In this document: one piece after another, positions 5,741-40,824 of the stretch | Numbering within the stretch: position 1 is the first letter of the stretch | How the letters are laid out: each line of letters opens with the position of its first letter | Virus record (IMG/VR): IMGVR_UViG_3300027833_000012 | Coordinates: 48,257-112,256 of that record | Strand: one strand, 5' to 3' | Length of the DNA: 64,000 nucleotides | Source of the DNA: a virus | Lineage: Duplodnaviria > Heunggongvirae > Uroviricota > Caudoviricetes | Made by a program: the position numbers and the translations under genes | The notes under the pieces: model-generated | The model's input: the letters and a program-made list of their open reading frames with translations, nothing else | What the model was told of the DNA's origin: nothing | Database searches by the model: none

Positions 5741-5797
5741 AGTTACTTTTTATTTAAGTCAAAGATACGTATAAAAAACACAATAAACAAATAAATT

Positions 5798-6710: not shown

Positions 6711-7043
6711 TTATTTCTTACTTTCTTTTTTAATCCCTAAGTAAGTTCCAACAGAACCACCAATAATAAATGCTAATATCGGTAAAGGTTGACCCTCGGT
6801 TATTGAATTCATACCAAAGGTCATTGATACTAGCCATGTTATACCAATACCATTACCAGTTATTATCGTAGCTAACATTCTTCTTTCCGAAGTATATATA
6901 ACATTTAATGTTCTCAAATAAATAAAAATTATCTGAGATGCTAAAATAACCAGTGCTGAATAATATTGATTTTCAAGTATTTCAGTAAAATCTACCATGA
7001 TATTATATTTTTTATAAAATGTTATACAATCTCTTATTATCAA
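6711..7043 (-). CDS. small membrane protein
   Basis: 110 aa with three hydrophobic helices. Confidence 0.4.
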   Translation of the reverse strand: MIIRDCITFYKKYNIMVDFTEILENQYYSALVILASQIIFIYLRTLNVIYTSERRMLATIITGNGIGITWLVSMTFGMNSITEGQPLPILAFIIGGSVGTYLGIKKESKK

Positions 7044-9658: not shown

Positions 9659-10165
9659 CTAATTAATTTTTAAAAATCTAATGAAAAAGAAAATACTTAC
9701 ACAAAATAAACCTATAGATTCAGCTAAGAATAAGGTTATAACATTTAAGAATAATAAAGTTAGTGTAGTTAAGACTATGATGAATATACTTATTTTAGTT
9801 TGTTTAGAGAAAACCTTACTAAAATAAATCAATATAAATAAATTCTCCAGGAAAAATAAAATAGCAAACACATCATGAATATACTCACCCTCTTTTACTG
9901 GGAAGATAACAACACCTAACATTGAGATACCTAGGATAATGTTAAACCTTCTATTTTTATCTATTATACCGTCTAATATAAAGAAAATACTTATAAAACT
10001 TAAAGTCACAATATAAAACCAACACGCTTCTGAATAGATATATTTACTAACACTATCTAAAAATTCACCAGTAATTACTGGTAAAAATACAGGTAAAATA
10101 AAAAGCGTTATCGATAGAAATAATTCTACCTTGATAACGCTTTTTATAATGTTAATTTGGTTCAT
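9659..10165 (-). CDS. polytopic membrane protein
   Basis: 168 aa; 5-6 hydrophobic helices. Confidence 0.45.
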   Translation of the reverse strand: MNQINIIKSVIKVELFLSITLFILPVFLPVITGEFLDSVSKYIYSEACWFYIVTLSFISIFFILDGIIDKNRRFNIILGISMLGVVIFPVKEGEYIHDVFAILFFLENLFILIYFSKVFSKQTKISIFIIVLTTLTLLFLNVITLFLAESIGLFCVSIFFFIRFLKIN

Positions 10166-10230
10166 AACGGACTATATGTTTTCTATTAAATAAATATGTA
10201 AAATTTCCACTTTTATTGGGGTTTTTACAC

Positions 10231-10413
10231 TTATTTTCTAAAAAATCCTGTCCAACCCAATGTCTTACCTTTTCTTCCCCTAGATTTAGGTCCTTCTTTT
10301 AAGTACCAACCACCTTTTTTTGATTTACTCTTATAAACATGTGTTTCTCTATCACTAAACATGTCAAGTAAATTTTCCCACATTTCTAACCAATCAAAAT
10401 CATCTTTTGCCAT
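10231..10413 (-). CDS. small basic protein
   Basis: 60-aa Lys/Arg-rich ORF. Confidence 0.3.
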   Translation of the reverse strand: MAKDDFDWLEMWENLLDMFSDRETHVYKSKSKKGGWYLKEGPKSRGRKGKTLGWTGFFRK

Positions 10414-10415
10414 AA

Positions 10416-10814
10416 CTATTCGTTTGTTTTAAATTTATAATACCAGACTTTACCATTAAACTTACTTAAATCTGGTACTAAAGTATCACCAATAGTTTTA
10501 TCTTGAATTTCTGAAACATGTAATTCATCACAAAATTCAATTGTTGACTCATACAATCTCTTACCACCTATAACCCAATCAGGGTTTTTAGCAAGAGCTT
10601 CTTCTAAAGTATGATAACCCTTTCCGACAACAATAACCTCTCTACCACTTAATTTAGGCATAGATTCAAATGTTGTTCTACCTACTAGTAATTTACAACC
10701 CATAGTCATTTTTTTAAAATGCTTTAAATCATCACTACTCTTCCATGGTAATTTATTATCTAAACCTATGTAGTCAAGTTTGTTAATTGCTATAATAGCT
10801 TTTAATTTATTCAT
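10416..10814 (-). CDS. frd: dihydrofolate reductase (short form)
   Basis: LPW motif, MGCKLLVGRTTFESMP (MGRKTxES) and GGKRLYE motifs; ends in TAG. Confidence 0.65.
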   Translation of the reverse strand: MNKLKAIIAINKLDYIGLDNKLPWKSSDDLKHFKKMTMGCKLLVGRTTFESMPKLSGREVIVVGKGYHTLEEALAKNPDWVIGGKRLYESTIEFCDELHVSEIQDKTIGDTLVPDLSKFNGKVWYYKFKTNE

Positions 10815-11832
10815 ATTGGTTTATATAACTTTTATTAATTTCACTAAACTTATCTAAAATTATTTGATGTTCACCATGTTCACCACATTGTGGGGTTAGG
10901 TATAACATATTCTCTTTAAAGTAACCAGACATTGGGTAAAGGTTTCTAGATATAGTATTTAAATCACTAAGTAATTTACCATGAACCCTAAAATCTCTTT
11001 TATATTTACCATTTAAAGTTTTAGGTTCTGGTTCTTTTTCTACTAACTCATCTAATTCTGAAGTAGCTTTACCTTGTTTAATATAAATTTTACGTAAAAT
11101 ATCTAAACTACTATTAAGGTCATACACACTTACACCTATAATTTGTAATAGTAATTCTTTACAAATTGAATCATCTAGGTGTTCCCATAATTGATACATA
11201 TTCTTTGTCCCAACCCATAATTTATCATCAGATAAATCTATATGACTTAATAAAGAGTCTGTACTATCTGAATCATTAAAATAATATATTGATTTACCGT
11301 CCCATGTTTTCAAATCTCTACCATCAGAAATGAATTTTTTACCACTATGTGAGTATAAATGTTCATCCTCCCCTTCACTTTCCCCTTCATACTTAAAATC
11401 TAATAACTTAAGAATACTTGAATCACCTAATCTTAAAGAATCTGTAGATTTAATAAAATTAGTTGACATGAAATCATAAACTTTTTTATTAATAAACATG
11501 AAATTCCAATCTTCAACTTCACTAGGATTTTTAATCTTATTCAACACTTCTTTATATTTATCTCTACCAAAAGTGTGTTTACCATCAACAAAATAAACAA
11601 CAAATTCTTCAATTGTAACACCAAAGTGTTCTTCAATTAATTTTGTGTTTTCATCTTTTTGTATATTTTTTAAACCACCATAATCATCATACGTACCAAA
11701 AATTGGTAACGTTGCTGGTAAATTTGGTTGATAACCAAAACCATTATTTTTCTTTAAGGGTAATAAAACACATTCATTACCAGATGTAATCGCTATATTA
11801 CTTATTCCACAGTGCACTGACCAACTTCCCAT
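10807..11832 (-). CDS. hypothetical protein
   Basis: 341-aa ORF. Confidence 0.45.
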   Translation of the reverse strand: MGSWSVHCGISNIAITSGNECVLLPLKKNNGFGYQPNLPATLPIFGTYDDYGGLKNIQKDENTKLIEEHFGVTIEEFVVYFVDGKHTFGRDKYKEVLNKIKNPSEVEDWNFMFINKKVYDFMSTNFIKSTDSLRLGDSSILKLLDFKYEGESEGEDEHLYSHSGKKFISDGRDLKTWDGKSIYYFNDSDSTDSLLSHIDLSDDKLWVGTKNMYQLWEHLDDSICKELLLQIIGVSVYDLNSSLDILRKIYIKQGKATSELDELVEKEPEPKTLNGKYKRDFRVHGKLLSDLNTISRNLYPMSGYFKENMLYLTPQCGEHGEHQIILDKFSEINKSYINQYE

Positions 11833-12615: not shown

Positions 12616-12840
12616 TTACTTGATTAAATGTTTAACTTTTTCACAAGGCACACAAGTAACACCTAGACCAGTTGTTTCTAATGATGCTGCTTTTCTAGAA
12701 GCAACAACAGCAAAACATAACCCAGTCCTATCATCCTTATCGTAGACTAAATCCTCAGCTTTAAAATTTACATTACTAGATGTACCAACTGAACAACTAC
12801 ATAAGAATAATGTAACACATAATACCATTAATTTTTTCAT
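12616..12840 (-). CDS. small lipoprotein
   Basis: Signal peptide MKKLMVLCVTLFLCSCS with lipobox. Confidence 0.45.
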   Translation of the reverse strand: MKKLMVLCVTLFLCSCSVGTSSNVNFKAEDLVYDKDDRTGLCFAVVASRKAASLETTGLGVTCVPCEKVKHLIK

Positions 12841-14785: not shown

Positions 14786-16102
14786 TTATTCACAAAGACT
14801 ATCCCCAGGTATATAACTTGTATTCCATTGAGTCAATACATCTCCATTTGATGAAGTCCATTGTCCTGTTGGTAATGGTTGGCCTGATACAGCTTTCCAT
14901 AGAATCATATCTCCTGGCTCAATACTAATACTAAGTACTTCTCCATTCCCATAATCAAATGTAATACTTATTGTGTCTGAACTACCATTATACATTTCAA
15001 TAATGTCTGTTCTAACCCCATCAATATAAATACCTCTAGCGTATACTGTATTGTAGTCAGTTAAATACACATAAGGTGTTACATTTACAAAACTACCAGC
15101 TGGGCTATCACACATACCATACACATATTCTGTGTAGTAAGATGTATCTTCTTCTACTTCCCAGTTATCATCAAAATCACATGGGTGACAATCTAATTCT
15201 GTCCAATCAAAGTTAAAGGTAAAATTATTTACATCCTCAACAACCGAATCATGGTTTACAATCAACATACACCCAAGAGATTCTCCAGTTGTAATATCAA
15301 ATGATGTTGTAAATGTGTTTGTAACATTTGGAAAACTATCACAAACTCTAAACTCATACTCTACCGTAGCACCAGTTGAAGTATCGTCAACATGAGACCA
15401 ATAAAATCTTAATACTTCACTGTAGTTAGTAGCATCAAATTGCTTAGTTAATGTTGTTGAATTACCACTACTATCAGTGTATGTGGCAACAACTACAATG
15501 TAATTTGAATTAAATGTGGCAACCATTTCATCATCTAAGGCTATTAAAGTCATTAATCTTCCAGATGATGCACTCATTTCGAAGACAACCACATTATTAC
15601 CTTCTTCAGTAACTAATACATCATTGTCTTCACCGTAAAATGTAGTGTGAGGTGCTTTTGCCCTCATCTCACCCATTAAATCATTCATATCTGAAGATGT
15701 AGACCCTGGTACAAAACCATAACTGAATTCACCCTCTTTTCTGTAGGTATCAGCAGTAGCTATAAAGTTGTTTGTACCAAGAGCAACGTCCTGTAATACA
15801 AATTCATTTTCACCCGACCCATCGTCAGTCATTTCATAAGTTTCTGAAGTGGAATAACTTGTATTACCTATCGCACCAACATGATTGGCTGTGATGTCAA
15901 TTACATCTATAAATGGTAATACCGTTAGAGGTCTATTAATTGCAACCCTAGATTGACTATTACTTGACGGAGCAACAATAATACTAACGTCTTGTGTTTT
16001 TAATGTTGGGTTAATTACTTCTGGACTCTCAGAGTCATCATTACTGCATGATGTTAACCCAATAATCATCATTAATAATACTAATTTAAAATACTTTTTC
16101 AT
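14786..16102 (-). CDS. large secreted lipoprotein, Ser/Thr-rich
   Basis: MKKYFKLVLLMMIIGLTSCSND signal peptide plus lipobox; 438 aa. Confidence 0.6.
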   Translation of the reverse strand: MKKYFKLVLLMMIIGLTSCSNDDSESPEVINPTLKTQDVSIIVAPSSNSQSRVAINRPLTVLPFIDVIDITANHVGAIGNTSYSTSETYEMTDDGSGENEFVLQDVALGTNNFIATADTYRKEGEFSYGFVPGSTSSDMNDLMGEMRAKAPHTTFYGEDNDVLVTEEGNNVVVFEMSASSGRLMTLIALDDEMVATFNSNYIVVVATYTDSSGNSTTLTKQFDATNYSEVLRFYWSHVDDTSTGATVEYEFRVCDSFPNVTNTFTTSFDITTGESLGCMLIVNHDSVVEDVNNFTFNFDWTELDCHPCDFDDNWEVEEDTSYYTEYVYGMCDSPAGSFVNVTPYVYLTDYNTVYARGIYIDGVRTDIIEMYNGSSDTISITFDYGNGEVLSISIEPGDMILWKAVSGQPLPTGQWTSSNGDVLTQWNTSYIPGDSLCE

Positions 16103-16439
16103 ATTGTTAATTTTTTTTTATTTTGCCTACTCTAAATTAAGTTTTCAGCTACCCTTATTTATTTACTAAAACAAATATACAACTTATTATTTAATAAAAC
16201 AAGTTTAAATTAAATATTTAACTTATTTTTTATATGTGTATGTTGTATCACACTCTTTTGAACCATCAACCTCAACACAATTTATCTTAACACTAGGGTT
16301 AATTAATTTTGATGATGTTAATGTATTACTAGGTTTATTAGGTAAAAAAAACATTGCGAATATACCACCCAATACAAAAAAAAATACCATAACATTAATC
16401 TTTTCATTACTTTTATTTTCCTCCATAATATTTTATATT

Positions 16440-16889
16440 TTAAATTAATTTTAATCCTTCTTGTAGCCCTTCCTCCAATGCTTCTTCGTAGGTTTTAAAA
16501 CTACCTAATTCAATAGGAACATAACCATTTTCATTTTTTTCTGTATAATGATATACCTCACACCCATAGGATTTTCTCTTGGAATAAGGACTAGGTATTA
16601 CTTCTATACCATGTACTTCCCTTAACCATTTTTGTAGTAATGATTGTGATGGTCTTTCATAAAGTGTGTAATACTCATTACTTAAGTCACCAAGATTAGG
16701 TTCACCGTTAACCATGTAAAATTTACTATCAGTTGTTAAATCACCTTCTTCATAAGACTCCAAATGATTAGGGTCACCATCATATTCATAAGTTGAATTA
16801 TGTAAGATGAATAGACAATTACTACCACCTTTATAAGATTTTTCTTTAGCTAACTTTGCCGTTTCAAATGTTATTAAATCTTCTTTCAT
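16440..16889 (-). CDS. hypothetical protein
   Basis: 149 aa; preceded by the 62-bp promoter repeat. Confidence 0.45.
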   Translation of the reverse strand: MKEDLITFETAKLAKEKSYKGGSNCLFILHNSTYEYDGDPNHLESYEEGDLTTDSKFYMVNGEPNLGDLSNEYYTLYERPSQSLLQKWLREVHGIEVIPSPYSKRKSYGCEVYHYTEKNENGYVPIELGSFKTYEEALEEGLQEGLKLI

Positions 16890-16899
16890 TATTTATTTT

Positions 16900-16961
16900 T
16901 ATATGTTTTGATTTACACAAATATAAGAAGAATTTATTTACTGTGCAAATTTAATGTGAAG
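16900..16961 (-). promoter_or_regulatory. 62-bp promoter-bearing intergenic repeat, copy 1
   Basis: tatatgttttgatttacacaaatataagaagaatttatttactgtgcaaatttaatgtgaag. On the coding strand this reads TTTG (-33) ... TTATATTTG (-7, TAnnTTTG), immediately 5' of the start of 16440..16889. Confidence 0.55.
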
Positions 16962-16970
16962 TTTTTTATA

Positions 16971-17414
16971 TTAACATATTGGTTGGTTATCACGTATTAA
17001 TGTATCAACATAAAACCTTTCTTTATCTGATAACTTATTATACCACTCATTAGCTTCTTTAATCCCGTTCAGTTCTTTATACCTTTCTATCTTTAACCTC
17101 TCAACCTCATTAAAATCCTCGACACTTATAGCTTTGAAAGATATATTTTTTGACCCAAATACATTATACAATTTAACCACATAACCTAAATTTTCAACAC
17201 CATACCAATCATCATTATTAAATATATTTAAAGCTTCAAATATATCAATACCCAAAGTTTCCTTTAACTTTTTAATAACTTCGATTTTAGTATACGATAG
17301 TCGCTTTACCTTAAATTTAATATATCTATAAATCACATTTTCATCAAAATATTTATAATCCATATCTAATTCTGCTGAGACAATATTATATTTTATGTTA
17401 CACAATTTACTCAT
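16971..17414 (-). CDS. hypothetical protein
   Basis: 147 aa. Confidence 0.4.
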   Translation of the reverse strand: MSKLCNIKYNIVSAELDMDYKYFDENVIYRYIKFKVKRLSYTKIEVIKKLKETLGIDIFEALNIFNNDDWYGVENLGYVVKLYNVFGSKNISFKAISVEDFNEVERLKIERYKELNGIKEANEWYNKLSDKERFYVDTLIRDNQPIC

Positions 17415-17417
17415 GAT

Positions 17418-17702
17418 TTATTTTAAAGTTCCTATTACTAACCCTTCGAATATAATATCAGTACCTATAATATAACCAAGTTTTTTCAAACCCTCAATTT
17501 CACCAGATACTGGTAAGGGTTTATATGGTAAAGGTTTACCACCAAATCTTTGGATAATCTCACGATAAATGTAAGGTGAAATATTAGAATTAAAAACTTT
17601 ACTAAACCAATAAATATTTGATAAATGTTGGTCATCGATTTGGTTTAAACTTAAAACCCTATCATCATATGTTCTCCATTTAAATTCTGTAACAGTACTC
17701 AT
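17418..17702 (-). CDS. hypothetical protein
   Basis: 94 aa. Confidence 0.4.
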   Translation of the reverse strand: MSTVTEFKWRTYDDRVLSLNQIDDQHLSNIYWFSKVFNSNISPYIYREIIQRFGGKPLPYKPLPVSGEIEGLKKLGYIIGTDIIFEGLVIGTLK

Positions 17703-17706
17703 AATT

Positions 17707-18051
17707 TTAATTATTTTTTGTTATAAAAAAATCAAACCCATTAAAAGGTAAATTAACCCTAAATTTAGTTCCTTTAGGTGCTTTCCATTTGTAAATTAAC
17801 CTCTTAGCTGCCTTTAATGACATAGGGTTAGGTAAACCTAAATAATTCATTGAATAATAAGAGCTGTGTAAACCTCCAAGATTTTTAGGGTTTTTTATCC
17901 ACTCTAATTTGTCAGAATCAAACCACATACCCCTTTCTACTGGCTCAACCCATAGAGGTCTTTTTGTTTTTATGTTATTATTGTGCGGGTTTAAATAACT
18001 AACCGATTTAAACATTCTTTGACCCTTTGGTTTTCTTGATTTAGTACGCAT
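17707..18051 (-). CDS. hypothetical basic protein
   Basis: 114 aa. Confidence 0.4.
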   Translation of the reverse strand: MRTKSRKPKGQRMFKSVSYLNPHNNNIKTKRPLWVEPVERGMWFDSDKLEWIKNPKNLGGLHSSYYSMNYLGLPNPMSLKAAKRLIYKWKAPKGTKFRVNLPFNGFDFFITKNN

Positions 18052-23007: not shown

Positions 23008-23499
23008 TTAAAATTTACGTAATTTAGCGGTATATTCTGTCCCACCTATATATTTACCAGTATCATCTTTTTTCATTAATTTATAATTCCCCCAAATATT
23101 TTTTAAATCTTCTTTAGTATATAATTTAACTCCCATTTGCTGTTTAGAATATTGAGCACCAGTTAAATCAATAAATAAATCACCAACCTTTAATATTGTA
23201 TGTACTAAATATTTTTTATCATATTTTTTCCATTCTGGGTGAGCATCATCAGTTTCAAATTTAGGGTTTAATAAATCGATTAATATCAATTGGTTATCAT
23301 CATAACCTATCTCTAGTAAATGTTTATATAACATATTAGATACAGTGTCACATTGACCTTTTGATAAATCACATGAATTAATTAAATCACTTATTTTAAC
23401 ACCAGAATTTAAATTTAACTTTGTGAAATTATTAATGTCATTTATAAGTTTATCTTTATTTAATCCTTCCCTTAATAAATTTTGTATAAATTTTTTCAT
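23008..23499 (-). CDS. leader-family protein A1 (MKKFIQNLLREGLN...), putative capsid-targeted protein
   Basis: N-terminal 14 aa identical to the next gene, also at nucleotide level. Confidence 0.5.
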   Translation of the reverse strand: MKKFIQNLLREGLNKDKLINDINNFTKLNLNSGVKISDLINSCDLSKGQCDTVSNMLYKHLLEIGYDDNQLILIDLLNPKFETDDAHPEWKKYDKKYLVHTILKVGDLFIDLTGAQYSKQQMGVKLYTKEDLKNIWGNYKLMKKDDTGKYIGGTEYTAKLRKF

Positions 23500-23526: not shown

Positions 23527-24813
23527 TTATTCTATTAAACCTGGGTTATATGAATTTGCTAAACGTTCTAGTTCATTTGCGTATTCTGGTATTATAATTT
23601 TCATAATATTAATATCTCCTTTAGGTATTATATTATTAAGACTAGTAGAAAGTAACTGAATTGCCTTATCCTCATCACCATCCACCATATCCATCCAAAG
23701 ACTTGCATCCTTAGTGTATTTTTTACCTTTAATACTTTTTATACCTCTTAATGCTCTAATTATATGCATATATTTCGATTTATAAGATTTACCTAAAAAA
23801 CCATTTAAATTTTTATCAATTTCTTTATATATTTTAGGTGTATAAATACCCTTAGTTTCGGATACAAACATATCAATACCCATTTTTTCAATAATATATT
23901 TCAAAGTCTCATATCTACCTTCAACTAAAACATGTCTATATATATCATCATTAATATCAGTACTTCTTATTTTTTCAAGTATTTCACTATCTGAGATATC
24001 TGATAAATCTTTTTTACTAATATTATTTACTTCTTCATGATATGTATCACTCCATTGTTCTATAAATTTAGAGAACTCTATATTATATGAACCATACATA
24101 TCAATTGGTGCTTTTATTTTTTTATCAGTACATAACACACCAACTACATACCTAGAAATTGGGTCTTGTATATTCCAATCTCCATCCTCAATTAAGTAAA
24201 ATATTACATCACCATCAAGTATTGAATCTCTAATTTGACCAGCACCACCTTCACCATCGTGCTGCCCTTTACTTGTCCAATTAGAATCATCATCTTTTAA
24301 ATCTTTCATATCTCTAAGGTCTTCACAAGATGTTATCCTAGGTTTTGCTGATTTACTAGCTAAATCATGTGGATGTCTCGATACTACAACATATAAATCA
24401 CTTCCTTCATCATTTGAACGATTTAATCTATCTAAGTATGAATTATAATTTTTAAGTAATTTAAAATCTAATTTATTTAATATTTTACTAATTTTAATAT
24501 TTTGATTACTTTTATTATTTTTAGCAATATTTTTATCCATATCAACAATAGAATAATTATATTTTTTAAGCATACTTGAAATATCATTATTTAGTTTTTC
24601 AATATTTTTAACATCAAATTTAAGTTTTGGTGTCTTCCTTGTTGGAGTGATTTGTTTACCAGTCTCCAAATTATAGTATAATCTATATACATTTTTACCA
24701 AAAATATCATCTAATTTACTTTTATCCCAAGTATTCCTTAATTGTTTACTTAAATTTAATGATATACTCTCATTCAAACCTTCCCTTAATAAATTTTGTA
24801 TAAATTTTTTCAT
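23527..24813 (-). CDS. leader-family protein A2 (MKKFIQNLLREGLN...)
   Basis: 428 aa; same leader; body unrelated to A1. Confidence 0.5.
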   Translation of the reverse strand: MKKFIQNLLREGLNESISLNLSKQLRNTWDKSKLDDIFGKNVYRLYYNLETGKQITPTRKTPKLKFDVKNIEKLNNDISSMLKKYNYSIVDMDKNIAKNNKSNQNIKISKILNKLDFKLLKNYNSYLDRLNRSNDEGSDLYVVVSRHPHDLASKSAKPRITSCEDLRDMKDLKDDDSNWTSKGQHDGEGGAGQIRDSILDGDVIFYLIEDGDWNIQDPISRYVVGVLCTDKKIKAPIDMYGSYNIEFSKFIEQWSDTYHEEVNNISKKDLSDISDSEILEKIRSTDINDDIYRHVLVEGRYETLKYIIEKMGIDMFVSETKGIYTPKIYKEIDKNLNGFLGKSYKSKYMHIIRALRGIKSIKGKKYTKDASLWMDMVDGDEDKAIQLLSTSLNNIIPKGDINIMKIIIPEYANELERLANSYNPGLIE

Positions 24814-25928
24814 ATTTCCATAAATTCTGGTACATTTTCACCAGGTGGGTTGTTTTCACTAACATATTTTATTAATTCTTTAAAATAATCTTCTAATTCT
24901 CTTTGATTATCTTCTTCACCATTTATGTCTTTTATTAATTTACTTGTTAAAACACTAACTGTTTCATTGTTTAAATTATTAGTAAGTTTTAATAAATCAC
25001 TAACATCAACTCTAAAATGATAATCACGTCTACTTTCGTATTCATTCATTAAGAAAATAACATAAACATCATCTAAAGTTAATTCATTAACATTAACATC
25101 TTCCTTGACCTCATAACCACTTACGTATAAAAGTTTTAATGAATCAATAAAATCTTCATTAATTTTTTCTTTTTTTACATCATTATATAAGTAATTTTGT
25201 AAATTACTTATATTATCAACGCTAATTATTTCATCAAAACCTTCACTTTTAGAAGGTTGTTCGTATGATTTAAACATTCTATCAAAAGCTTGTGGTGGTA
25301 TTGTTTTTGATTTACCCATTCGTTTAGCTGATTCTGCTCTATTATTTGCCACTTGTTTAATTAATTCTTCAGAACCTTTAAATTTAAAATCAACAGCAAT
25401 TTTAATATAATCACCTTCATTACCTTCGATTGCTTTTAATGCTCCTTTTCTTGAACCAGAATTCATATTAGTCATATCCACTACTATCACTTTACCACTA
25501 GGGTGTGCGTCTTTAACCCTTGAATTGAATAAATTTTGAACTTTATTATTTGCATTAATTACTTTATCAAAAACAGTGTCGGCCCATGTCATCCAGCTTG
25601 GTGATTCTATAACAGTACCATATTTTTCGTCAACATCACCTATTTTAGCATCTTCTGGTGGTGTTGAAAATAAATCATCATATGTCCAATTGTAAGTTGA
25701 AGCAACTTCTTCAACAATATCATCTCTACTAATTACATATGAATTAGGGAAATTACTTTTAATCCATGTTGATTTACCTACTGATGGTGGGCCTACTAAA
25801 ACTATTATTTTTCTCTTTTTTAACCCCCCATCTACCTCTTCACGTAAAAGACTATTTTGTTTAATATATCTTTGTTCTGAAAGTATATTAGCTTTCATCA
25901 TATTTTTAAATTTATCTAATTTTCTCAT
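24810..25928 (-). CDS. polynucleotide 5'-kinase (T4 Pnk kinase-domain-like) behind a 30-aa shared leader B
   Basis: VLVGPPSVGKSTW and FPNSYVISRDDIVEE parallel T4 Pnk GCPGSGKSTW and NPGFYNINRDDYRQ; DMTNMN ~ DTNLN; no DxDGT phosphatase domain; leader MRKLDKFKNMMKANILSEQRYIKQNSLLRE. Confidence 0.7.
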   Translation of the reverse strand: MRKLDKFKNMMKANILSEQRYIKQNSLLREEVDGGLKKRKIIVLVGPPSVGKSTWIKSNFPNSYVISRDDIVEEVASTYNWTYDDLFSTPPEDAKIGDVDEKYGTVIESPSWMTWADTVFDKVINANNKVQNLFNSRVKDAHPSGKVIVVDMTNMNSGSRKGALKAIEGNEGDYIKIAVDFKFKGSEELIKQVANNRAESAKRMGKSKTIPPQAFDRMFKSYEQPSKSEGFDEIISVDNISNLQNYLYNDVKKEKINEDFIDSLKLLYVSGYEVKEDVNVNELTLDDVYVIFLMNEYESRRDYHFRVDVSDLLKLTNNLNNETVSVLTSKLIKDINGEEDNQRELEDYFKELIKYVSENNPPGENVPEFMEI

Positions 25929-26002
25929 AACTTTTTTTATCTTTTTTTCTCATTAGTATTTTTTAATATTAACATATCCATGTTATAAATAAATATCATT
26001 AA

Positions 26003-26045
26003 AAACAAAAAAAAACCATACTTAAAATATGGTTTTTTTGTTTTT
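26003..26045. terminator. hairpin plus T-run terminator
   Basis: aaccatacttaaaatatggtt flanked by A-run and T-run. Confidence 0.55.
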
Positions 26046-26052
26046 AATGATA

Positions 26053-26679
26053 TTAATCTCTTTCTGGTGGGTCCATATCTGGACCTTCTGGTAGATAATA
26101 TTCTGAGTGTTCCTCTATATGATTTTCAATAGCATTACGTATTTTACTAAGTGTTTCAGAACTAACCTTAACTTCATGAATTATTTCTTGATTATCGTCA
26201 ATTTTATAGATTTCATGTATATAAAAATACACCTCAAACTCTGGATATTCCTCTGGCTCTTCAAGGGTTGATGCTCTATGACTACCAGACCAAGAACTTT
26301 CGTCATCGATTTTAACCAAATATCTACCACCATCATAAATCCATGGGTATTTATCTTTAGATGTTACATTACCAAAAGCAAAATAATATTCACCATCTTC
26401 TTTAATATAATCTTCTAAATAAACTTTATCGTTATGTATTACATTACCTAATTCATTTTCATTAATCCTTTTTATTTTATTAAAGGTCTTATTAAATGAT
26501 TCGATAAGATTACTTCTATTAACATTTAAATCTGTAACTAATTTTTTTGATGGATTTTCATCAACATCTTTATATTCAATTTCATTATTTTCCCTTAAAA
26601 GACTATTTTGTTTAATATGTCTTTGTTCTGAAAGCATATTAGCTTTCGTAATATTTTTAAATTTATCTAATTTTCTCAT
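26053..26679 (-). CDS. leader-B family protein (MRKLDKFKNITKANMLSEQRHIKQNSLLRE...)
   Basis: First about 30 aa and about 80 nt nearly identical to 24810..25928; body unrelated. Confidence 0.5.
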   Translation of the reverse strand: MRKLDKFKNITKANMLSEQRHIKQNSLLRENNEIEYKDVDENPSKKLVTDLNVNRSNLIESFNKTFNKIKRINENELGNVIHNDKVYLEDYIKEDGEYYFAFGNVTSKDKYPWIYDGGRYLVKIDDESSWSGSHRASTLEEPEEYPEFEVYFYIHEIYKIDDNQEIIHEVKVSSETLSKIRNAIENHIEEHSEYYLPEGPDMDPPERD

Positions 26680-26730
26680 AACTTAATTTTATTATAAATA
26701 TTATTAAAATATTAAAAAAATTATAAATTT

Positions 26731-28227
26731 TTATTTTAAGTGCGGTTTAATTGCGAATGATATATAACATCCTACCATAAATCCAAGTGTTGATGGAATT
26801 GGGAAAACAACATCCTTACCGAACTTTGTCTTATATTTTTCTCTATTAAGTATTAAGCTATCAAATCTTTTAAAGATGTAATATGATAACCCTATTAAAA
26901 TATAGTTACCAGAAGCTACCATTGCAATTGCTAACCCACTTAATAGTCCATGAGTAAAGTTTATAATAGAGTGTTTTGAAACTGTCTTAATAGTTTCGTT
27001 AGCATCCATCATTTTTCTTTCTTTTTCTATAATTTTTTTAATTTTCATTTCTCTTTTTTTTAATTTAGGGTAAATATATGACCTTTTTTTAGTTCTACCA
27101 AATATTTTATCAATAAATTTATCTTTCTCTAACGTTTTGATAACATTACCTAATTCTGGCCCTGGTTTCAAGTCGTATTTCTCTAATACTTCACCCCCAG
27201 TTACTGTTAATTCAAAAACAATGAATGCATTAACAAAATTCTCATCAAGATTAATAAGTTTAGAAAACTTAACAATTTGTTTAGGTGTTAAACCAGACCT
27301 TTTTTGTTCTTTTTTCATAGAAGAAACTTCAAAAATAGATTTATCATTAACAAAGTTAGTAAATAGAATTAAGAATTTAATACCTCTTATTTCCTCACTA
27401 CTATATTTTAATTTATTTAACGTTTTAACAATATTTAAAATATTATTATCACGTAAAAGAACAGTTAACAATAATATTGGGTCACGTTCTTCAATTAAGA
27501 AATTATTGACCATTAACCCTTTAAAGATATCCTTGAATAAGCCAAATTTATTAGTTAAAGTTAAAAAGTGAGTTACTGATTTAGAAGTCTTAAGACCCTT
27601 AAGGAATTCATCTCTAATTCGCTCACCAGAAACACCTTCTAATGAAGAATCTTTAATTAAAGCTTGTTCGGTATCAGTATGAAGGTTTGAACCGAATCTA
27701 CCAGCAAATCTGATTGCCCTTAGTATTCTAAGTCTATCCTCATTAAATCTTTCTTCAGCTTTACCTACTGTTCTTACCACACCGTTTTTAATATCTTCAA
27801 CACCACCCACTAAATCAACGATTTCATTAGTATCTATGTCAAAAAATAGTGCATTAATTGTTAAGTCACGTCTTAATACATCCTTATCAATGGTTGTAAA
27901 TTCTACTGAATCTGGTCTTCTACCAGATGATAGGTCACTTCTGAATGTAGCAATTTCGAATTCATTTGAGTCAGTGAATACGTTAATTACACCGAATGAC
28001 TTACCCGTTGGTAGAGTTCTGATACCAGCTACCTCCATCATTTCTTCTACTTTATCTGGTGTTGCGTCTGTTGCTAAATCCCAATCTTTAATTGGTTTGT
28101 TTAAAATAGAATCACGAACAGCACCACCAACAATGTAAAGTTTAAAACCATTACTTAAGAAAATATCCTTAATGGTTAAAATATCCTTTGGGATTGGTAG
28201 GTTAAATTTAATTCTTTTTGTGTTCAT
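26731..28227 (-). CDS. cca: CCA-adding enzyme / tRNA nucleotidyltransferase (class II) with C-terminal membrane-helix extension
   Basis: YIVGGAVRD (GGxVRD) and DWDLATD motifs; C-terminal about 90 aa hydrophobic. Confidence 0.7.
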   Translation of the reverse strand: MNTKRIKFNLPIPKDILTIKDIFLSNGFKLYIVGGAVRDSILNKPIKDWDLATDATPDKVEEMMEVAGIRTLPTGKSFGVINVFTDSNEFEIATFRSDLSSGRRPDSVEFTTIDKDVLRRDLTINALFFDIDTNEIVDLVGGVEDIKNGVVRTVGKAEERFNEDRLRILRAIRFAGRFGSNLHTDTEQALIKDSSLEGVSGERIRDEFLKGLKTSKSVTHFLTLTNKFGLFKDIFKGLMVNNFLIEERDPILLLTVLLRDNNILNIVKTLNKLKYSSEEIRGIKFLILFTNFVNDKSIFEVSSMKKEQKRSGLTPKQIVKFSKLINLDENFVNAFIVFELTVTGGEVLEKYDLKPGPELGNVIKTLEKDKFIDKIFGRTKKRSYIYPKLKKREMKIKKIIEKERKMMDANETIKTVSKHSIINFTHGLLSGLAIAMVASGNYILIGLSYYIFKRFDSLILNREKYKTKFGKDVVFPIPSTLGFMVGCYISFAIKPHLK

Positions 28228-28387: not shown

Positions 28388-28795
28388 TTAAATTTTTATA
28401 ACATAGGCAATAATAAAGGTATCACCTGATAAGATTCTAGATGTTATCCTATGGTGACCATCAATAGCATAATAAGTATCACCAATTAATATTAATGTTG
28501 CATTTGTGTCTTTACCAACACCCTTAACTTTATCTAAATTATTTAATGATATAAATCTTTGTGTAGGTGCAATATCTTTAAGATTAACTTGTTGTTTATC
28601 AGCATTTGATAAGTTATTTATTTTATCTTCAACTGAATTTACCTTGGCGTTAAAATCTGAATTATATGATGTCCCATGTGGGTTAGGTTTAGCAAATATT
28701 ACTCTAGTCCTAACTTTAGATTGACCATTAAATAATTTATCAACATTACTATCATATAAACCCTCTTTAAGTAATTTTTTAATTAAACTTTTCAT
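28388..28795 (-). CDS. leader-A family protein with ParB/Srx-like nuclease domain
   Basis: MKSLIKKLLKEGL leader; IDGHHR motif. Confidence 0.5.
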   Translation of the reverse strand: MKSLIKKLLKEGLYDSNVDKLFNGQSKVRTRVIFAKPNPHGTSYNSDFNAKVNSVEDKINNLSNADKQQVNLKDIAPTQRFISLNNLDKVKGVGKDTNATLILIGDTYYAIDGHHRITSRILSGDTFIIAYVIKI

Positions 28796-28796
28796 A

Positions 28797-29981
28797 TTAT
28801 TTTATATTAAACATGTTAGATTCATCTTCTCTCCTAGATTTATGACCTTCATAACTAACATTAGTTGTTTTTATTTTTTCCTTAGCTTCTTTATACTTAC
28901 CATTCTTTACTAATTGTATAAATTCTGTATTTCTAAAACCTTGTCTACCCATATTAAAGGCCATGGATGTCATAGCATCATACATACCTTGTGTTATATC
29001 AAATTCAATACCCTTATTTTTCCAATCTTCCAATATATCATCAATAGTAGCTTTAGCCTTACTTAAATCTTGTTTAAATAATTCATTAGCGGTTTTAATA
29101 TCTATTTTTTGATTTTTCTTAAAGCTTGAAGATTTAATTGGTTCAGCATGTCCCCAACCAACGGTAACTTTACCATCACCCAATTCATATGCTCTTAAAA
29201 CTGGTTCACCCTTTCTCTTAGCCGAACCTTCATGATTTTTAAGCATATTTATTAAATTCGAAGATACTTTATTTGGAGTATTAAATTTTGTGTCAACAAC
29301 ATCCTTAATATTTGTTTTTAAAGAATTTGTATCAACTTTTTTGCTAGGTACCTTTATTTCTTTAGAATCTAAAGCATTACCCATATCACCTATTAAATTA
29401 TTAAAGGAAGTTAAGCCTATAACACCAATTAAGGTTGTTATAGCATACTTCTTCAACTTCTTTTTTATATTTTTGGGTAATCTATCACTTTTATTATTTA
29501 ATGCGTTTAAATAGCTCTTAGCATCTTCTTCACTACTTATATCATTAACTGATTTATCGATATTATCCTTAGCAACCTCCCAGGATATTGTTGGAGATGA
29601 ATCGTCTGAATCGTAATCAAATTGACTTACAGCTTCGTTTAAAAATTTATTCTCATATAATGGTAAATCTTTATGTTTAAACTTTGCACCTAGGTCGGTT
29701 TTCATTGATGGTACATATTGATATTCAGGGAATTCATTCTTTATGTATTTAACCATCCTTGAACCTAAACCTTGTCTCCTTAATTCTGGTCTAACTCCAA
29801 TATCACTTATTGTTATTTCACCATCATAAAGTACATATTCAGTAACACCAACTAGTTCACCATTTAATGATAATTCTAGTTGGTAGTTATGTTGGTCAGA
29901 ATATGAATCCATATGTCTGTTATAATATGTTATTTTACCTTCAAGTTCTTCTCTAAGTAATTTTTTTATAAAACCTCTCAT
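28797..29981 (-). CDS. leader-A family protein: GNAT acetyltransferase plus C-terminal lysozyme (GH24-like) fusion
   Basis: MRGFIKKLLREELE leader; GNAT motif RRQGLGSRM; C terminus DAMTSMAFNMGRQGF...KEAKEKI resembles the T4 lysozyme NMVFQMGETG region. Confidence 0.6.
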   Translation of the reverse strand: MRGFIKKLLREELEGKITYYNRHMDSYSDQHNYQLELSLNGELVGVTEYVLYDGEITISDIGVRPELRRQGLGSRMVKYIKNEFPEYQYVPSMKTDLGAKFKHKDLPLYENKFLNEAVSQFDYDSDDSSPTISWEVAKDNIDKSVNDISSEEDAKSYLNALNNKSDRLPKNIKKKLKKYAITTLIGVIGLTSFNNLIGDMGNALDSKEIKVPSKKVDTNSLKTNIKDVVDTKFNTPNKVSSNLINMLKNHEGSAKRKGEPVLRAYELGDGKVTVGWGHAEPIKSSSFKKNQKIDIKTANELFKQDLSKAKATIDDILEDWKNKGIEFDITQGMYDAMTSMAFNMGRQGFRNTEFIQLVKNGKYKEAKEKIKTTNVSYEGHKSRREDESNMFNIK

Positions 29982-29982: not shown

Positions 29983-31128
29983 TTAATGTACTGCTAAAAA
30001 TGTCTTGTGTACATCCTTACGTTGTGCACTTATATCTGTATCACCAGTAGGTAACACTATCACATCATATTGTAAAGGTTTACCTTCATTAGGTGGTAAT
30101 TCATCATGATATTTTATTCTATTTATATCGATATTATAAGAGTCAGATACTCTTTTTCTAAGTTCTTCTTTTCCCCCATCAACAAATATAGGTAACCCTT
30201 TTTCATCCTTAACATAGTGAGGACCTTTTTTCTCAAAAATGTCGTTAAATAACTTCTTTGGAATTATGTCGGAATATTTGTTTTTATCTAAATCAACTAA
30301 TTTTAATTCTTTTGGTGCTGAACCCTTAGAGAAGTTCATAATGAAATCATCACTAGCTAGGTTAACAAATTTAGCTTGTTTAGTGTAAGCATATGATTTA
30401 ACATCAAAACCAGCATTAACCAAATCTTCAGTAACTTTCTTTGCTATATCAAAATACTTTTGACTAAAGAAATCACCAGCATCATTCCACCTCATAACTA
30501 ATTTAGGTACTGAACCACTTCTTCTACCTTGTCTTTTTAATTTGAAGGCTAGAGGTTCTAATTCATCCATAATCATATTGTAGTATTCTTCTGGGTCATT
30601 CATTAATAAGTTAAGTCTTCTAATCAATTTAAGAACTTTACCATCATTCATACCATAGAAACCTTTTCTAGCATAACAAACTAGTTGACAAGAACCAGCA
30701 CCTGGACAAGTATTTATGTGGTAAAATTTATCACCAGCTTCATCATATATGATACCCTTTATGGCTGGTAAACCAGTATTAACTGTCATTTGTTCACCAC
30801 CATCATCACTCTTCTCCATCTTAGGGTTTTGGTCGAATATTCGTTTAGGTGGTGTAGTTATTAATTCTTTAAATTTAGCCACATCTAATTCACCATCACC
30901 AGTTAAATTCTTTTCAATTTGTTTTCTAGTTAAAATAGCATCCTTAGTACCACGCTTATCTCTATCTTTAGAAGATTGATTAAGCCTGTCTAATTCCTTA
31001 TTCATATCATTAGCTAATTGTTGTGGTGAAACACAACTTGCCTTAGTATCTGAAAAATCACCTTCCCAATCAACCTCATTAATTAAGTTTAAACTTTCTC
31101 TAAGTAACCCCTTTATAAATTTTTTCAT
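29983..31128 (-). CDS. leader-A family protein (MKKFIKGLLRESLN...), function unknown
   Basis: ORF track starts 17 codons upstream at 31179; the internal Met gives the conserved leader; Cys cluster CPGAGSCQLVC. Confidence 0.5.
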   Translation of the reverse strand: MKKFIKGLLRESLNLINEVDWEGDFSDTKASCVSPQQLANDMNKELDRLNQSSKDRDKRGTKDAILTRKQIEKNLTGDGELDVAKFKELITTPPKRIFDQNPKMEKSDDGGEQMTVNTGLPAIKGIIYDEAGDKFYHINTCPGAGSCQLVCYARKGFYGMNDGKVLKLIRRLNLLMNDPEEYYNMIMDELEPLAFKLKRQGRRSGSVPKLVMRWNDAGDFFSQKYFDIAKKVTEDLVNAGFDVKSYAYTKQAKFVNLASDDFIMNFSKGSAPKELKLVDLDKNKYSDIIPKKLFNDIFEKKGPHYVKDEKGLPIFVDGGKEELRKRVSDSYNIDINRIKYHDELPPNEGKPLQYDVIVLPTGDTDISAQRKDVHKTFLAVH

Positions 31129-31165
31129 ATTAATAACTTTATTTACATATAAATATCTATTAAAC

Positions 31166-31200
31166 ACAAAAAAACCCAATAGTTTTACCTATTGGGTTTA
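31166..31200. terminator. hairpin terminator
   Basis: aaacccaatagttttacctattgggttt. Confidence 0.5.
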
Positions 31201-36961: not shown

Positions 36962-37297
36962 TTAAAAATATAAAATATAAATATCTTTACCGAGCTTGTG
37001 AGCCTTACCTATACTGTCCCTAGTACCTCTTGATTTTTTATCCCAACAAGCTAATACCATATCACAATCATTTATTATATCTGAATTTCTAATGAATCCA
37101 GCAGCCTTACCATGCTTATCCCAATCTGGTTTATGTATTATGGTTTTTAAACTGTTTTCAGATGCATACCTTTCACTTAATTTATCTGCACCATGTGCAC
37201 CTCCAGAAATAATAGTAGATGGCTTAAGACGGTCTAAAACCACCTTAAGCCTATTATAATCATCAAATGACCTACTACCTACTACTGCAATTTTCAT
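36962..37297 (-). CDS. SLOG/DprA-LOG-like Rossmann protein (DUF2493-like)
   Basis: VVGSR...ISGGAHGADKLSERYA motif. Confidence 0.5.
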   Translation of the reverse strand: MKIAVVGSRSFDDYNRLKVVLDRLKPSTIISGGAHGADKLSERYASENSLKTIIHKPDWDKHGKAAGFIRNSDIINDCDMVLACWDKKSRGTRDSIGKAHKLGKDIYILYF

Positions 37298-38034
37298 TAA
37301 GGGTTCTTTTTCAATATAATACCATCGATTATACCGTATTCTTTAGCTTCTTCAGCTGTTAACCAGAAATCTCTATTGGCATCTAACTGAACTTGTTCTG
37401 ATGTTTTACCAGTAAATTCACCAAGCATTTCAAATAAAATATCATTATATTTATCACCCTCAGCTACACTAATCCTTACATCGGCCATAGTTCCTTGTGC
37501 TCCAGTACTAACTTGGTGTAACATAACCTTACTATGTTTAAGACTATAACGCTTACCCTTAGTTCCGTTACCTAATAATATTGACCCCATCGATGCCGCC
37601 ATACCTGTGTTGATTGTCATTACATCAGATGTTATATAGTTCATAACATCAACCATACCTAACCCAGATTTAACTGAACCACCTGGTGAGTCAACGTGCA
37701 TAGTTATATCAAGATTACTATCAATACTATCTAAGAACATTAATTGTGCCTGTACAACTGTACTCATCATATCGTTTACTGGACCATTAACCCATAAAAT
37801 TCTATCAGCCATCATTCTAGAGAATATGTCCATTTGAGTAACCCTCATAGGTCTTTCCTCTAAGATATATGGTGTTAAACTATTCTTTGGTGTTGAAGCA
37901 CCTACACTCACATTAGAGTATAACTGGCTTTGAATTTTATCCCATGCGTGAAATTGCATTGAACTAACACCCATATGTTGTATAGCGTATTTCTTAAACT
38001 CGCTATAAAAATCTAAATTACCGTATCCTTCCAT
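37297..38034 (-). CDS. clpP: ClpP-family serine protease
   Basis: DSPGGSV, MAASMGS (Ser nucleophile), HQ and D catalytic triad context; 245 aa. Confidence 0.85.
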   Translation of the reverse strand: MEGYGNLDFYSEFKKYAIQHMGVSSMQFHAWDKIQSQLYSNVSVGASTPKNSLTPYILEERPMRVTQMDIFSRMMADRILWVNGPVNDMMSTVVQAQLMFLDSIDSNLDITMHVDSPGGSVKSGLGMVDVMNYITSDVMTINTGMAASMGSILLGNGTKGKRYSLKHSKVMLHQVSTGAQGTMADVRISVAEGDKYNDILFEMLGEFTGKTSEQVQLDANRDFWLTAEEAKEYGIIDGIILKKNP

Positions 38035-39718: not shown

Positions 39719-40238
39719 ACATGACATCTGTTCTAATTGCATATTTAACACCGTGTTTAACAGCAAGTCCAGCATGCATGACATTTTGTTGGAAGACAAG
39801 ACATTTACCAGTTTCAGGTGTAACCGCACCATTTAGGAAAAATGTTTCACCACCTCTATAATCTTCATTTAAATAAATTAACATAGTTAATAAACTTCTT
39901 TCATTTTCATCACTAACAAAAGAAACATCTTTGTGCATTTTAAATCGTTGGCCAACTTCATACTTATACACCTTCATTTGCCCATTTAAACCCTTTAATT
40001 TCCAACCATCAATATTAGCTGGTAACTTATCTTTAAATTTATCAAATAGTTCATTACATAAGTTAACATCGTCTAATAACGCACTACCATTATTTCTAAT
40101 ATGCTCTTGAATCATTTCACCTCTAGGTGTCTTTACTTTAGGTTTACTAAACCCAATACTTTCACCTAATGATATGAATTTAGAACATTCACTTTCTGAT
40201 AATAAATTTTCAATTTCTATTTTAACCATAATTTTCAA
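39708..40238 (-). CDS. 2OG-Fe(II) oxygenase (prolyl-hydroxylase-like)
   Basis: HKD ... H facial triad in a jelly-roll context; RxS near C terminus. Confidence 0.6.
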
Positions 40239-40824
40239 CTTTTATTACACCACAACCTTTTGTGTATTGTTCTTCTATTTGTTCAAGTGATAAATCATCA
40301 AATAACATTAATTTAAGTTTATATGAACCTTCAATTGAGTTACCATCCTTATCTATAGGATTTTCATCAGTAAATTCAAGATAATAAGGTTTTTTAATAA
40401 CATTTGAGTTATAAACAATTACTAAATTATCATCTAAATTATCACTAAAATTGATTTTATATCTATTAAGGTAATAATTTGAACCAAAGGTATAATCAAT
40501 AAATTTTCTTAAATTACTACTAATCATTAAGTTATTACCAGGACCAATCATCGTAGCTTGATGAATTTGTGTTGAAATTTGATTAATCTTAGTAACTAAA
40601 GTTACGTTCCAATCCTCTTTAGTGTATGGAGAACGTAACCCGTAATAATCCCATCTAAGTTTCCATTTATGTTTTTCAACATGAAATATACTGAAATTTA
40701 AATCATTTAACTTATCAGATAAATTAGGGTGATTTGTAAAATAAAAATCACCCGAATTATTTGGTATATTATAATTTAATTGTTTAATCATTTTTACCTT
40801 CATCAGCCCCTTGGCCAATATCAA
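40222..40824 (-). CDS. hypothetical protein
   Basis: 200 aa. Confidence 0.4.
   Translation of the reverse strand: MILAKGLMKVKMIKQLNYNIPNNSGDFYFTNHPNLSDKLNDLNFSIFHVEKHKWKLRWDYYGLRSPYTKEDWNVTLVTKINQISTQIHQATMIGPGNNLMISSNLRKFIDYTFGSNYYLNRYKINFSDNLDDNLVIVYNSNVIKKPYYLEFTDENPIDKDGNSIEGSYKLKLMLFDDLSLEQIEEQYTKGCGVIKVENYG

Follow-up and report, generated by a model that had tools for sequence, protein, structure and literature searches.

Bacteriophage T4 offers the textbook route for loading non-structural proteins into a phage head, the N-terminal capsid-targeting sequence (CTS), which is documented for a handful of coliphage proteins. Mullaney and Black reportedly described, in 1996, the CTS carried by T4's internal proteins (IPs) IPI, IPII and IPIII and by Alt. 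The IP propeptides, 10–19 residues long, constitute the CTS; their N-terminal part targets the protein, residues 8 and 10 direct its processing, and the protease gp21 cleaves after L/I-X-E; an Asp at the cleaved residue prevents processing yet leaves targeting intact (PMC9026906). In the giant phages phiKZ, 201phi2-1 and SPN3US, many head-internal proteins are cut after Glu by a diverged gp21 homologue, and SPN3US gp53 and gp54 are paralogous cargoes with identical N-termini (PMC5694885, PMC7411985). Here, we characterize a 64-kb stretch of DNA (the window; positions 48,257 to 112,256 of the IMG/VR record IMGVR_UViG_3300027833_000012, Caudoviricetes), together with 10 kb beyond each of its ends. 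In this window, two adjacent genes, one for a polynucleotide-5′-kinase-like enzyme of 372 amino acids (aa) and one for a 208-aa orphan protein, begin with a shared 30-residue leader, called leader-2 in the following.

Leader-2 resembles the T4 CTS as an N-terminal peptide common to unrelated bodies, with a hydrophobic-x-Glu end, a gp21-family protease in related phages and a variable, non-core cargo. The T4 CTS is 10–19 aa long and not 30, has no sequence homology to leader-2, and its IP cargo is basic and not acidic. The scale of leader-2 is far larger (580 or more protein clusters), several leader families occur per genome, and leader-2 is known from sequences alone. The giant phages have in common with the leader-2 phages large genomes and processing after Glu, which for leader-2 is a prediction, but they are cut at S/A/G-x-E, many of their propeptides exceed 100 aa, and a single conserved leader over hundreds of bodies has not been described in them. 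By its N-terminal position, unrelated cargoes, L/I-x-E end and the gp21-family protease of related phages, we place the system with the T4 CTS and propeptides. The new elements are a highly conserved 30-aa leader family that heads at least 580 clusters of cargo in uncultured marine large phages, several leader families that coexist and replace each other on one cargo, and a cargo that resembles polynucleotide kinases. We judge it fairly probable that leader-2 is a T4-style capsid-targeting propeptide, cut off by the prohead protease; the kinase would then be loaded into the head and, probably, injected.

Two adjacent genes share a leader that ends at Glu30

Both open reading frames (ORFs) are present on the minus strand, which holds nearly all real genes of the window (G+C content, 28.5%), and both start with MRKLDKFKN..KAN.LSEQR.IKQNSLLRE (Table 1). 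Counted from the ATG, the two genes match at 84 of the first 90 nt and 26 of the first 30 aa, falling to 19 matches in the next 60 nt and a single match in the next 20 aa. A BLASTP comparison of the two bodies gave a best E-value of 0.8, i.e. no similarity. In the 40 nt upstream of the ATGs, 23 positions match, which amounts to the AT-rich background plus a common AAGTT before the ATG. Because the identity ends right after LLRE and the bodies are unrelated, the block of homology is exactly Met1 to Glu30. An earlier note on this DNA had described about 80 nt and 30 aa in common, ending in LLRE before the genes diverge; the 30 aa and the divergence hold, and the nucleotide block measures 90 nt. 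The 93% DNA identity of the two copies, synonymous sites included, suggests a recent duplication or gene conversion in this genome.

The AlphaFold model of the kinase precursor predicts that the leader is a single helix (residues 2–24) followed by an unstructured linker. Homology searches with the 208-aa protein returned only itself, with no family, PDB or phage match, and its single-sequence structure model is not interpretable (predicted local distance difference test, pLDDT, of 42). This protein contains a second, internal leader-like motif (NLIESFNKTFNKIKRINENE), which resembles the ends of the long N-terminal leaders on the kinase homologues P0007, P0010, P0011 and P0012.

Leader-2 is a portable peptide module

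We searched 1.84 billion representative proteins exhaustively with a 31-column profile of leader-2. The search returned 580 protein clusters with E ≤ 1e-3, of which 179 reached E ≤ 1e-10. With few exceptions, the profile aligns to residues 1–30 (1–30 or 1–31 in nearly all of the 150 best) of proteins that are 33 to 616 aa long. Among the 149 best leaders, M1, D5, N14 and E18 are invariant, and the leader's end is nearly so, with E30 in 148, I, L or V at position 28 in 148, and L27 in 129. From position 31 onward conservation collapses into an essentially random, acidic sequence. The bodies that reach 30 aa, 141 in number, form 78 groups without relation to each other (median body, 146 aa with an isoelectric point, pI, of 4.9). 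Only 3 of 126 cargoes have any Pfam match, and no functional theme could be extracted from this Pfam content. Because of the 78 unrelated body groups and the collapse at residue 31, leader-2 is a portable module and not a helix of paralogues. The occurrence on other bodies in related phages, for which the earlier note had proposed a search, is thus extensive, and the scenario that it named as a refutation, an ordinary helix common to paralogous enzymes, does not fit these bodies or the focal pair.

The conservation acts on the peptide. In 62 distinct leader DNAs from public viral contigs, the entropies of codon positions 1, 2 and 3 are 0.69, 0.48 and 1.00, and the ratio of nonsynonymous to synonymous differences (pN/pS) is about 0.29 (pN about 0.20, pS about 0.69). 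Since third codon positions are the most variable and pN/pS is low, selection keeps the leader-2 peptide rather than an RNA or DNA element. The DNA upstream of leader-2 genes is not conserved past a short promoter-like motif.

We also compared the N-termini of the kinase homologues, of which there are hundreds of marine ones, about 60–75% identical in the kinase domain. At about 70% identity in the body, they bear at least five unrelated leaders, each ending in hydrophobic-hydrophobic-x-E, or none. Some carry leader-2 itself (MRRFDK..LLKE), others short leaders (e.g. MKKSELRQIIRE and MKITKTYLRQVIKEE), further N-termini such as MKEILNEWRKFLKEQ and MKYTQEFLYMQKLAGLITE, or a leader of about 42 aa that ends in KRINEDE; leaderless homologues also occur (MKRKMLVLVGPP). 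In another type, the motif SLIRESL stands internally, behind an N-terminal domain of 170 aa. The leaders are lineage-specific, in that the kinase's leader recurs on adjoining genes of the same phage: in locus L009, four genes in a row begin with MKEILNEW.. leaders, in L007 several genes have ..LRKLIRES, and in L010 two genes have MRRFDK... In the window itself, a short leader, MKKFIxxLLRE, stands on five other genes, which are clustered closely about the focal pair, and both leaders of the window terminate in L-L-R-E.

In the homologues P0013–P0062 and L175 6001..7197, an N-terminal domain of 170–250 aa is followed by ..SLIRESLNxIFE.. just before the kinase domain; if this internal motif were a protease site, such homologues would be cut in two. 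Leader-2 genes have two insertion hotspots, 3′ of a tail-tube-like homologue and 3′ of the CCA-adding enzyme. In dozens of contigs a 162-aa homologue of the window's tail-tube-like protein (e.g. L011 9334..9822) is directly followed by a leader-2 gene.

Related leader-bearing phages have T4-type heads and a gp21-family protease

We sampled 80 IMG/VR loci with leader-2 (28–37% G+C, on contigs of up to 380 kb). In L014, L022, L032/33 and L044/45/49/51, the leader-2 gene lies a few kb or less from a T4-type head module, which comprises the large terminase, a gp20-type portal (Portal_T4), Peptidase_S77, an acidic scaffold and a gp23-type capsid protein. The capsid protein of these relatives matches 2548 records of T4-like phages. 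Some leader-2 genes stand directly 3′ of the capsid gene, and in L009 Portal_T4 and Peptidase_S77 adjoin genes with leaders.

A search with the protease found 3577 homologues, with PF03420 in all those listed. Of 80 protease loci, only two have a leader-2 gene at a distance of 10 kb or less, and five contigs carry both a protease and a leader-2 locus. In 3300001336_000001 (288 kb), 3300030838_000001 and 3300028676_000003 the leader-2 gene stands behind one for a homologue of the CCA-adding enzyme of the window, and in 3300032223_002716 and 3300027861_000056 leader-2 genes stand beside the head module.

The ends of the leaders match cleavage sites of T4 head proteins (a slash marks the end of a leader or propeptide). 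MAFFT aligns the capsid propeptide of the related phages, ..QASSLLTE/TT, to the T4 gp23 propeptide (65 aa, ..AQAFGSFLTE/AEIGG), so that the relatives' propeptide ends in LLTE at the aligned site; this end is kept in 44 distinct capsid sequences of related phages. In the T4 record, gp24 begins with MAKINELLRE/STT, close to the window's MKKFIQNLLRE/GL, with the same LLRE end after 10 and 11 residues, respectively. The gp23 and gp24 propeptides precede shell proteins, whereas the window's leaders precede enzymes and orphans (the kinase, a lysozyme fusion and a GP88-domain protein). IPII and IPIII of T4 both begin with MKTYQEFIAE and then diverge.

Among cultured phages, tblastn at E ≤ 1 found none with leader-2, and close DNA relatives of positions 23000–31200 were likewise absent. 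The nearest cultured system is the T4-like Flavobacterium phage vB_FspM_immuto, which grows on Flavobacterium sp. LMO8. It is without leader-2, but leaders of an analogous kind occur immediately upstream of its terminase gene (MKKQILSEQFRRMQKLAGIITE, MKKSQLRQIIKE and, as a pair, MADNFNLRSFLTENKLTKNAQLLKE and MENFDLKKFLVENKLTTNSKILKE). In vB_FspM_immuto_3-5A (L176, 2103..11178 and 15602..17715), the leaders end in hydrophobic-x-E, some lie inside the head module, and two adjacent genes have a common 24-aa leader; genes with such leaders include 3922..4386, 5435..6193, 9878..10879 and 10879..11178.

A promoter-like motif precedes leader genes and head genes

Many leader-2 genes are self-contained cassettes that consist of a hairpin with a T-run, the motif (G)ATATTTATAA(A/T)TAAA and, about 23 nt on, the ATG. 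At the same spacing, the ATATTTAT motif stands ahead of the genes for the terminase, the core protein, the protease and the scaffold in related phages. We counted the genes with ATATTTAT 19–30 nt 5′ of the start, and found it at 79% of head genes, 61% of leader-2 genes and 55% of short-leader-like genes, compared to 22% of other ORFs of at least 120 aa (leader-2 genes versus other ORFs, Fisher p = 2e-10). This distribution suggests that leader genes are co-expressed with virion genes, as packaging would require. The core of the motif, TATTTATA, is the reverse complement of TATAAATA, which we take to be the T4 late promoter consensus.

In the window, copies of the motif stand upstream of both leader-2 genes and of the first short-leader gene, the latter behind a terminator-like hairpin, and further copies accompany the tail-tube-like gene and its neighbours (Table 1). 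The hairpin between the two focal genes was read by eye; a hairpin scan missed it, as its stem has just two G-C pairs. The window also encodes a sigma-70-family protein (55619..56461).

The first cargo resembles polynucleotide 5′-kinases

The 372-aa protein contains all the motifs for which the earlier note had called it a T4-Pnk-like kinase: GPPSVGKST at residues 46–54, which is the Walker A motif GxxxxGK[ST] of the P-loop kinase fold, ISRDD at 66–70 and DMTNMN at 151–156. Pfam assigns PF13671 (AAA_33, E = 1.2e-8), and the PHROG matches include phrog_505, polynucleotide kinase (E = 1.9e-10), as well as families annotated as ATPase. A phmmer search of the PDB with the single sequence gave no match, and polynucleotide kinases were reached by the family profile only. 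A profile of 42 homologues, run against all PDB sequences, matched exclusively polynucleotide 5′-kinases at E < 0.01 (Clostridium thermocellum Pnkp kinase, 3e-4; T4 Pnk, 5e-4; and mammalian PNKP), all of them weakly (3e-4 to 1e-2), with Capnocytophaga Pnkp1 at 0.012, the same level as unrelated GTPases. In the AlphaFold model, built on a homologue alignment, the kinase domain (residues 39–240) is confident, with a pLDDT of about 90 or more. In a Foldseek comparison with the PDB, its 12 best matches are all kinase domains of PNKP or Pnkp, headed by those of mammalian PNKP and C. thermocellum Pnkp, and other P-loop kinases rank below. In both the sequence profile and the fold, the margin of polynucleotide kinases over other kinases is modest.

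Across the 42 homologues R68 and D69 of the SRDD segment are invariant, and the P-loop, DMTNMN and the lid-region residues R197 and R203 are invariant or nearly so. By alignment reading, without structural superposition, R68–D69 and the lid arginines may be equated with T4 Asp35 and Arg126. The protein is thus like T4 Pnk and Pnkp in its P-loop, in an SRDD segment where the catalytic Asp would be expected, in DxTN and in the lid region, and unlike T4 Pnk in having no phosphatase, an insertion of about 35 aa in the kinase fold and a 120-aa C-terminal extension. This extension (residues 250–372) is predicted to be helical at low confidence, is without a family match and is missing from most homologues. 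Pfam and PHROG searches found no HAD-type phosphatase or metallophosphoesterase domain in it, in agreement with the earlier note, which had described the kinase as lacking the phosphatase domain. The label of a Pnk-type kinase without phosphatase is therefore reasonable, on modest evidence from sequence profile and predicted fold.

Further genes of nucleic-acid repair in the window encode an Rnl2-type RNA ligase (289..1323), an ATP-dependent DNA ligase (2970..4487), a metallophosphoesterase (4465..5253), an HD-domain protein (5255..5740) and an RnlA-type RNA ligase (7012..8127).

Proposed loading mechanism

Capsid targeting is the best supported role of leader-2 because of four observations: the L/I-x-E end, the T4-type heads with a gp21-family protease in relatives, the LLTE end of their capsid propeptide and the motif in common with head genes. 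In the mechanism that we propose, the leader genes would be transcribed together with the virion genes, as the common promoter-like motif indicates. By analogy with the T4 CTS, the basic N-terminal helix would then dock the precursor on the very acidic scaffold core of the prohead. We propose this step because of the complementary charges of leader-2 (about +4) and of the scaffold of related phages (about −68, with a median pI of 4.1). A Peptidase_S77 of the gp21 family would cut after Glu30 of G-L-[ILV]-x-E, a step based on the motif and on the related genomes. The freed cargo would stay in the filled head and enter the host with the DNA, like T4 IPI–III and Alt.

In the window, the cargoes of leader-2 would be the polynucleotide-5′-kinase-like enzyme and the orphan 208-aa protein, and the short leader would load at least five more proteins, the lysozyme fusion among them. 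A pre-made kinase could, speculatively, phosphorylate 5′-OH ends of RNA or DNA from the start of infection. It could thereby help, for instance, to heal tRNA cut by host anticodon nucleases, or other nucleic acids that host defences have cut, together with RnlA, Rnl2, the metallophosphoesterase, the HD protein and the CCA-adding enzyme. To our knowledge, T4 Pnk is not among the virion proteins known for T4, and a search of a literature library found no report of a packaged polynucleotide kinase, of a CTS in marine T4-like phages or of the leader sequence MRRFDK. More tentatively, leader-2 and its sister leaders could be exchangeable packaging tags on a vast, almost wholly uncharacterised injected arsenal of abundant marine T4-like large phages, including a nucleic-acid 5′-kinase that would act from time zero against host defences that cleave RNA or DNA.

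Several observations weigh against capsid targeting. The [LIV]-x-E motif is short and frequent by chance. No T4 CTS is homologous to leader-2 or comes near its length (10–19 versus 30 aa), and the cargoes of leader-2 are acidic (median pI 4.9), where the T4 IPs are basic. With hhalign, homology of leader-2 to the capsid propeptide or to the N-terminus of the scaffold had a probability below 1%, with only a six-column KG[LH][IV]KE resemblance, which we do not count as evidence. The protease and head genes of the window's own phage were not found in the 64-kb window or in its 10-kb flanks, which hold large unannotated proteins, replication genes and accessory genes. Likewise, among the top 120 of the 3577 protease homologues, none lies on TARA_SAMEA4396988_METAG-scaffold_96, the contig of 222,253 bp with the kinase gene, and an exact 38-mer of the kinase gene had no match in IMG/VR. 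Across the AT-rich window, the promoter-like motif shows no significant enrichment (27 observed versus 19.7 expected), and the argument for co-regulation consequently rests on the position of the motif and on the comparison across loci. A literature search found no proteomic or biochemical study of a leader-bearing phage.

Two further observations bear on the kinase. Close relatives have leaderless kinases (L173 compared to L007), and within the window's nucleic-acid repair set only the kinase has a leader, the ligases, phosphoesterase, HD protein and CCA-adding enzyme being without one. Therefore, a virion role of the kinase is not obligatory. Both proposals of the earlier note survive in part. 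That of a cleavable capsid-targeting leader gains from the portable module, the gp21-type end and the T4-type heads in relatives, and loses from the absence of a protease gene in the window and flanks. That of a kinase delivered in the virion gains from this best supported reading of the leader, and loses from the leaderless kinases, by which delivery is not intrinsic to the enzyme.

If leader-2 is a packaging signal, it points to a much larger loading system in uncultured marine phages with genomes of about 200–380 kb, in which the conservation of the leader far exceeds that of its cargoes, which are hundreds of unrelated, acidic and for the most part unannotated proteins. A search for the N-terminal sequence would then list, from metagenomes, the injected anti-defence and host-takeover proteins of uncultured phages. 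An activity that heals RNA or DNA ends would be deliverable in pre-made form, and the leaders would be new tags for packaging foreign proteins into such capsids.

Alternative explanations for the leader

Leader-2 could instead target its cargo to the tail lumen, the baseplate or another late assembly, with the prohead protease leaving the leader on. In many related contigs the leader-2 gene directly follows the 162-aa tail-tube-like homologue, and leader-2 genes near protease loci are rare, as counted above, which would both agree with such a destination. Hypervariable cassette sites, however, typically lie 3′ of highly expressed late genes, and such a position is a poor guide to where the products go; other leader-2 genes stand immediately 3′ of the capsid gene. 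Both the invariant x-E junction and the agreement with the places where gp23 and gp24 are cut speak for the head protease, and we regard another compartment as unlikely.

It is similarly improbable that the leader is a retained, functional N-terminal helix on cytoplasmic proteins, for docking on a common partner or for oligomerization. The single long helix predicted by AlphaFold would suit this role, as would the kinase homologues in which the short motif lies internally, between the 170-aa domain and the kinase. Against this, the bodies are not paralogues, neither across the 78 groups nor in the focal pair, and the same kinase occurs with five different leaders or with none. The linker after the leader is flexible, acidic and unconserved. 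We also considered an amphipathic leader-2 helix and rejected it, as its hydrophobic moment is below the mean of shuffled sequences; a helix that is not amphipathic speaks against a retained role.

A leader that serves as a degradation or adaptor tag for the phage ClpP, such that late proteins are destroyed or processed on a cytoplasmic timer, has in its favour a true ClpP gene in the window, which is conserved in the closest relatives (L063, L010, L030, L036, L050 and L015). ClpP degrons are short and need no exact boundary, whereas leader-2 has 30 conserved residues and a near-invariant Glu at its junction, and the junction motif equals the gp21 motif and the end of the capsid propeptide. 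Neither a Clp ATPase nor an adaptor was noticed in the window, and other leader families of T4-like phages (L009) have the same anatomy beside a gp21 protease. We consider a ClpP tag quite unlikely.

The shared block is very improbably a nucleic-acid element with an incidental peptide (a recombination or cassette-exchange site, a translation-initiation element or an mRNA structure), since its variable third codon positions (pS far above pN) and its unconserved upstream DNA, the short promoter-like motif apart, outweigh the near-identity of the two window copies at synonymous sites and the bounding of cassettes by a terminator and a promoter-like motif.

Neighbouring genes and other features of the window

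The features of the window are collected in Table 1. The short-leader genes flank the focal pair on both sides, with the CCA-adding enzyme, which has no leader, in their midst. The genes for the 428-aa and 163-aa proteins are probably co-transcribed with the kinase gene. A homologue of the 428-aa protein in L033 (46% identical) adjoins a leader-2 gene and a capsid gene.

Table 1. Coordinates of the leader genes, motifs and neighbouring features in the window
Feature	Position	Strand	Remark
163-aa protein, leader MKKFIQNLLRE/GL	23008..23499	minus	short leader
428-aa protein, leader MKKFIQNLLRE/GL	23527..24813	minus	overlaps kinase stop codon
372-aa kinase-like protein	24810..25928	minus	leader-2, aa 1–30; linker, 31–38; kinase domain, 39–240; C-terminal extension, 250–372
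Polynucleotide-5′-kinase-like domain	25209..25814	minus	GPPSVGKST, SRDD, DMTNMN, lid region KRMGKSKTIPPQAFDRMF
Leader-2 coding block, kinase gene (MRKLDKFKNMMKANILSEQRYIKQNSLLRE)	25839..25928	minus	predicted cleavage after Glu30
Motif ATATTTATT	25988..25996	minus	68 nt 5′ of kinase ATG
Terminator-like hairpin AACCATA-loop-TATGGTT and T-run	26000..26034	minus	between 208-aa and kinase genes
208-aa protein, leader-2 and orphan body	26053..26679	minus	no family
Internal leader-like motif NLIESFNKTFNKIKRINENE, 208-aa protein	26452..26514	minus	read directly
Leader-2 coding block, 208-aa gene (MRKLDKFKNITKANMLSEQRHIKQNSLLRE)	26590..26679	minus	pairwise comparison
Motif ATATTTATA	26693..26701	minus	22 nt 5′ of ATG, 208-aa gene
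CCA-adding enzyme, without leader, amid short-leader genes	26731..28227	–	family search
135-aa protein with DGHHR motif, leader MKSLIKKLLKE	28388..28795	minus	tightly packed trio
GNAT and lysozyme fusion, leader MRGFIKKLLRE	28797..29981	minus	tightly packed trio
GP88-domain protein, leader MKKFIKGLLRE	29983..31128	minus	tightly packed trio
Motif ATATTTATA	31148..31156	minus	28 nt 5′ of first short-leader gene
Terminator-like hairpin	31172..31199	minus	followed by ATATTTATA motif, ahead of first short-leader gene
ClpP	37297..38034	minus	PF00574, E = 1.4e-57
Tail-tube-like protein	52049..52480	minus	phrog_4542, E = 9e-9
Further copies of ATATTTAT(A/T)	50368..50376, 52004..52012, 52498..52506, 55611..55619	minus	tail-tube-like gene and neighbours

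Elsewhere in the window, a 63-aa stretch of a 193-aa ORF (40222..40803, minus strand) is 49% identical to residues ~424–486 of the relatives' gp23-like capsid proteins, and this ORF may represent a capsid insertion domain that exists as a separate copy. A large conserved protein (41970..43433, minus strand) matches phrog_850, 'RNA-binding protein' (E = 2.5e-149), and its homologue in L010 is DUF2828/DUF7788; its gene sits amid small conserved genes that are common to the relatives. Beyond the low end of the window, the same phage encodes a PspA/IM30-family protein (L179 13384..14082) and a PARP-domain protein, a possible ADP-ribosyltransferase (L179 17129..18418). Two minus-strand ORFs of the window carry lipoprotein-type signal peptides (12616..12840, ..LFLCSCSVG..; 14786..16102, ..IIGLTSCSNDD..), which we take to be Bacteroidota-like. 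Together with the low G+C content, these signal peptides hint at a flavobacterial host.

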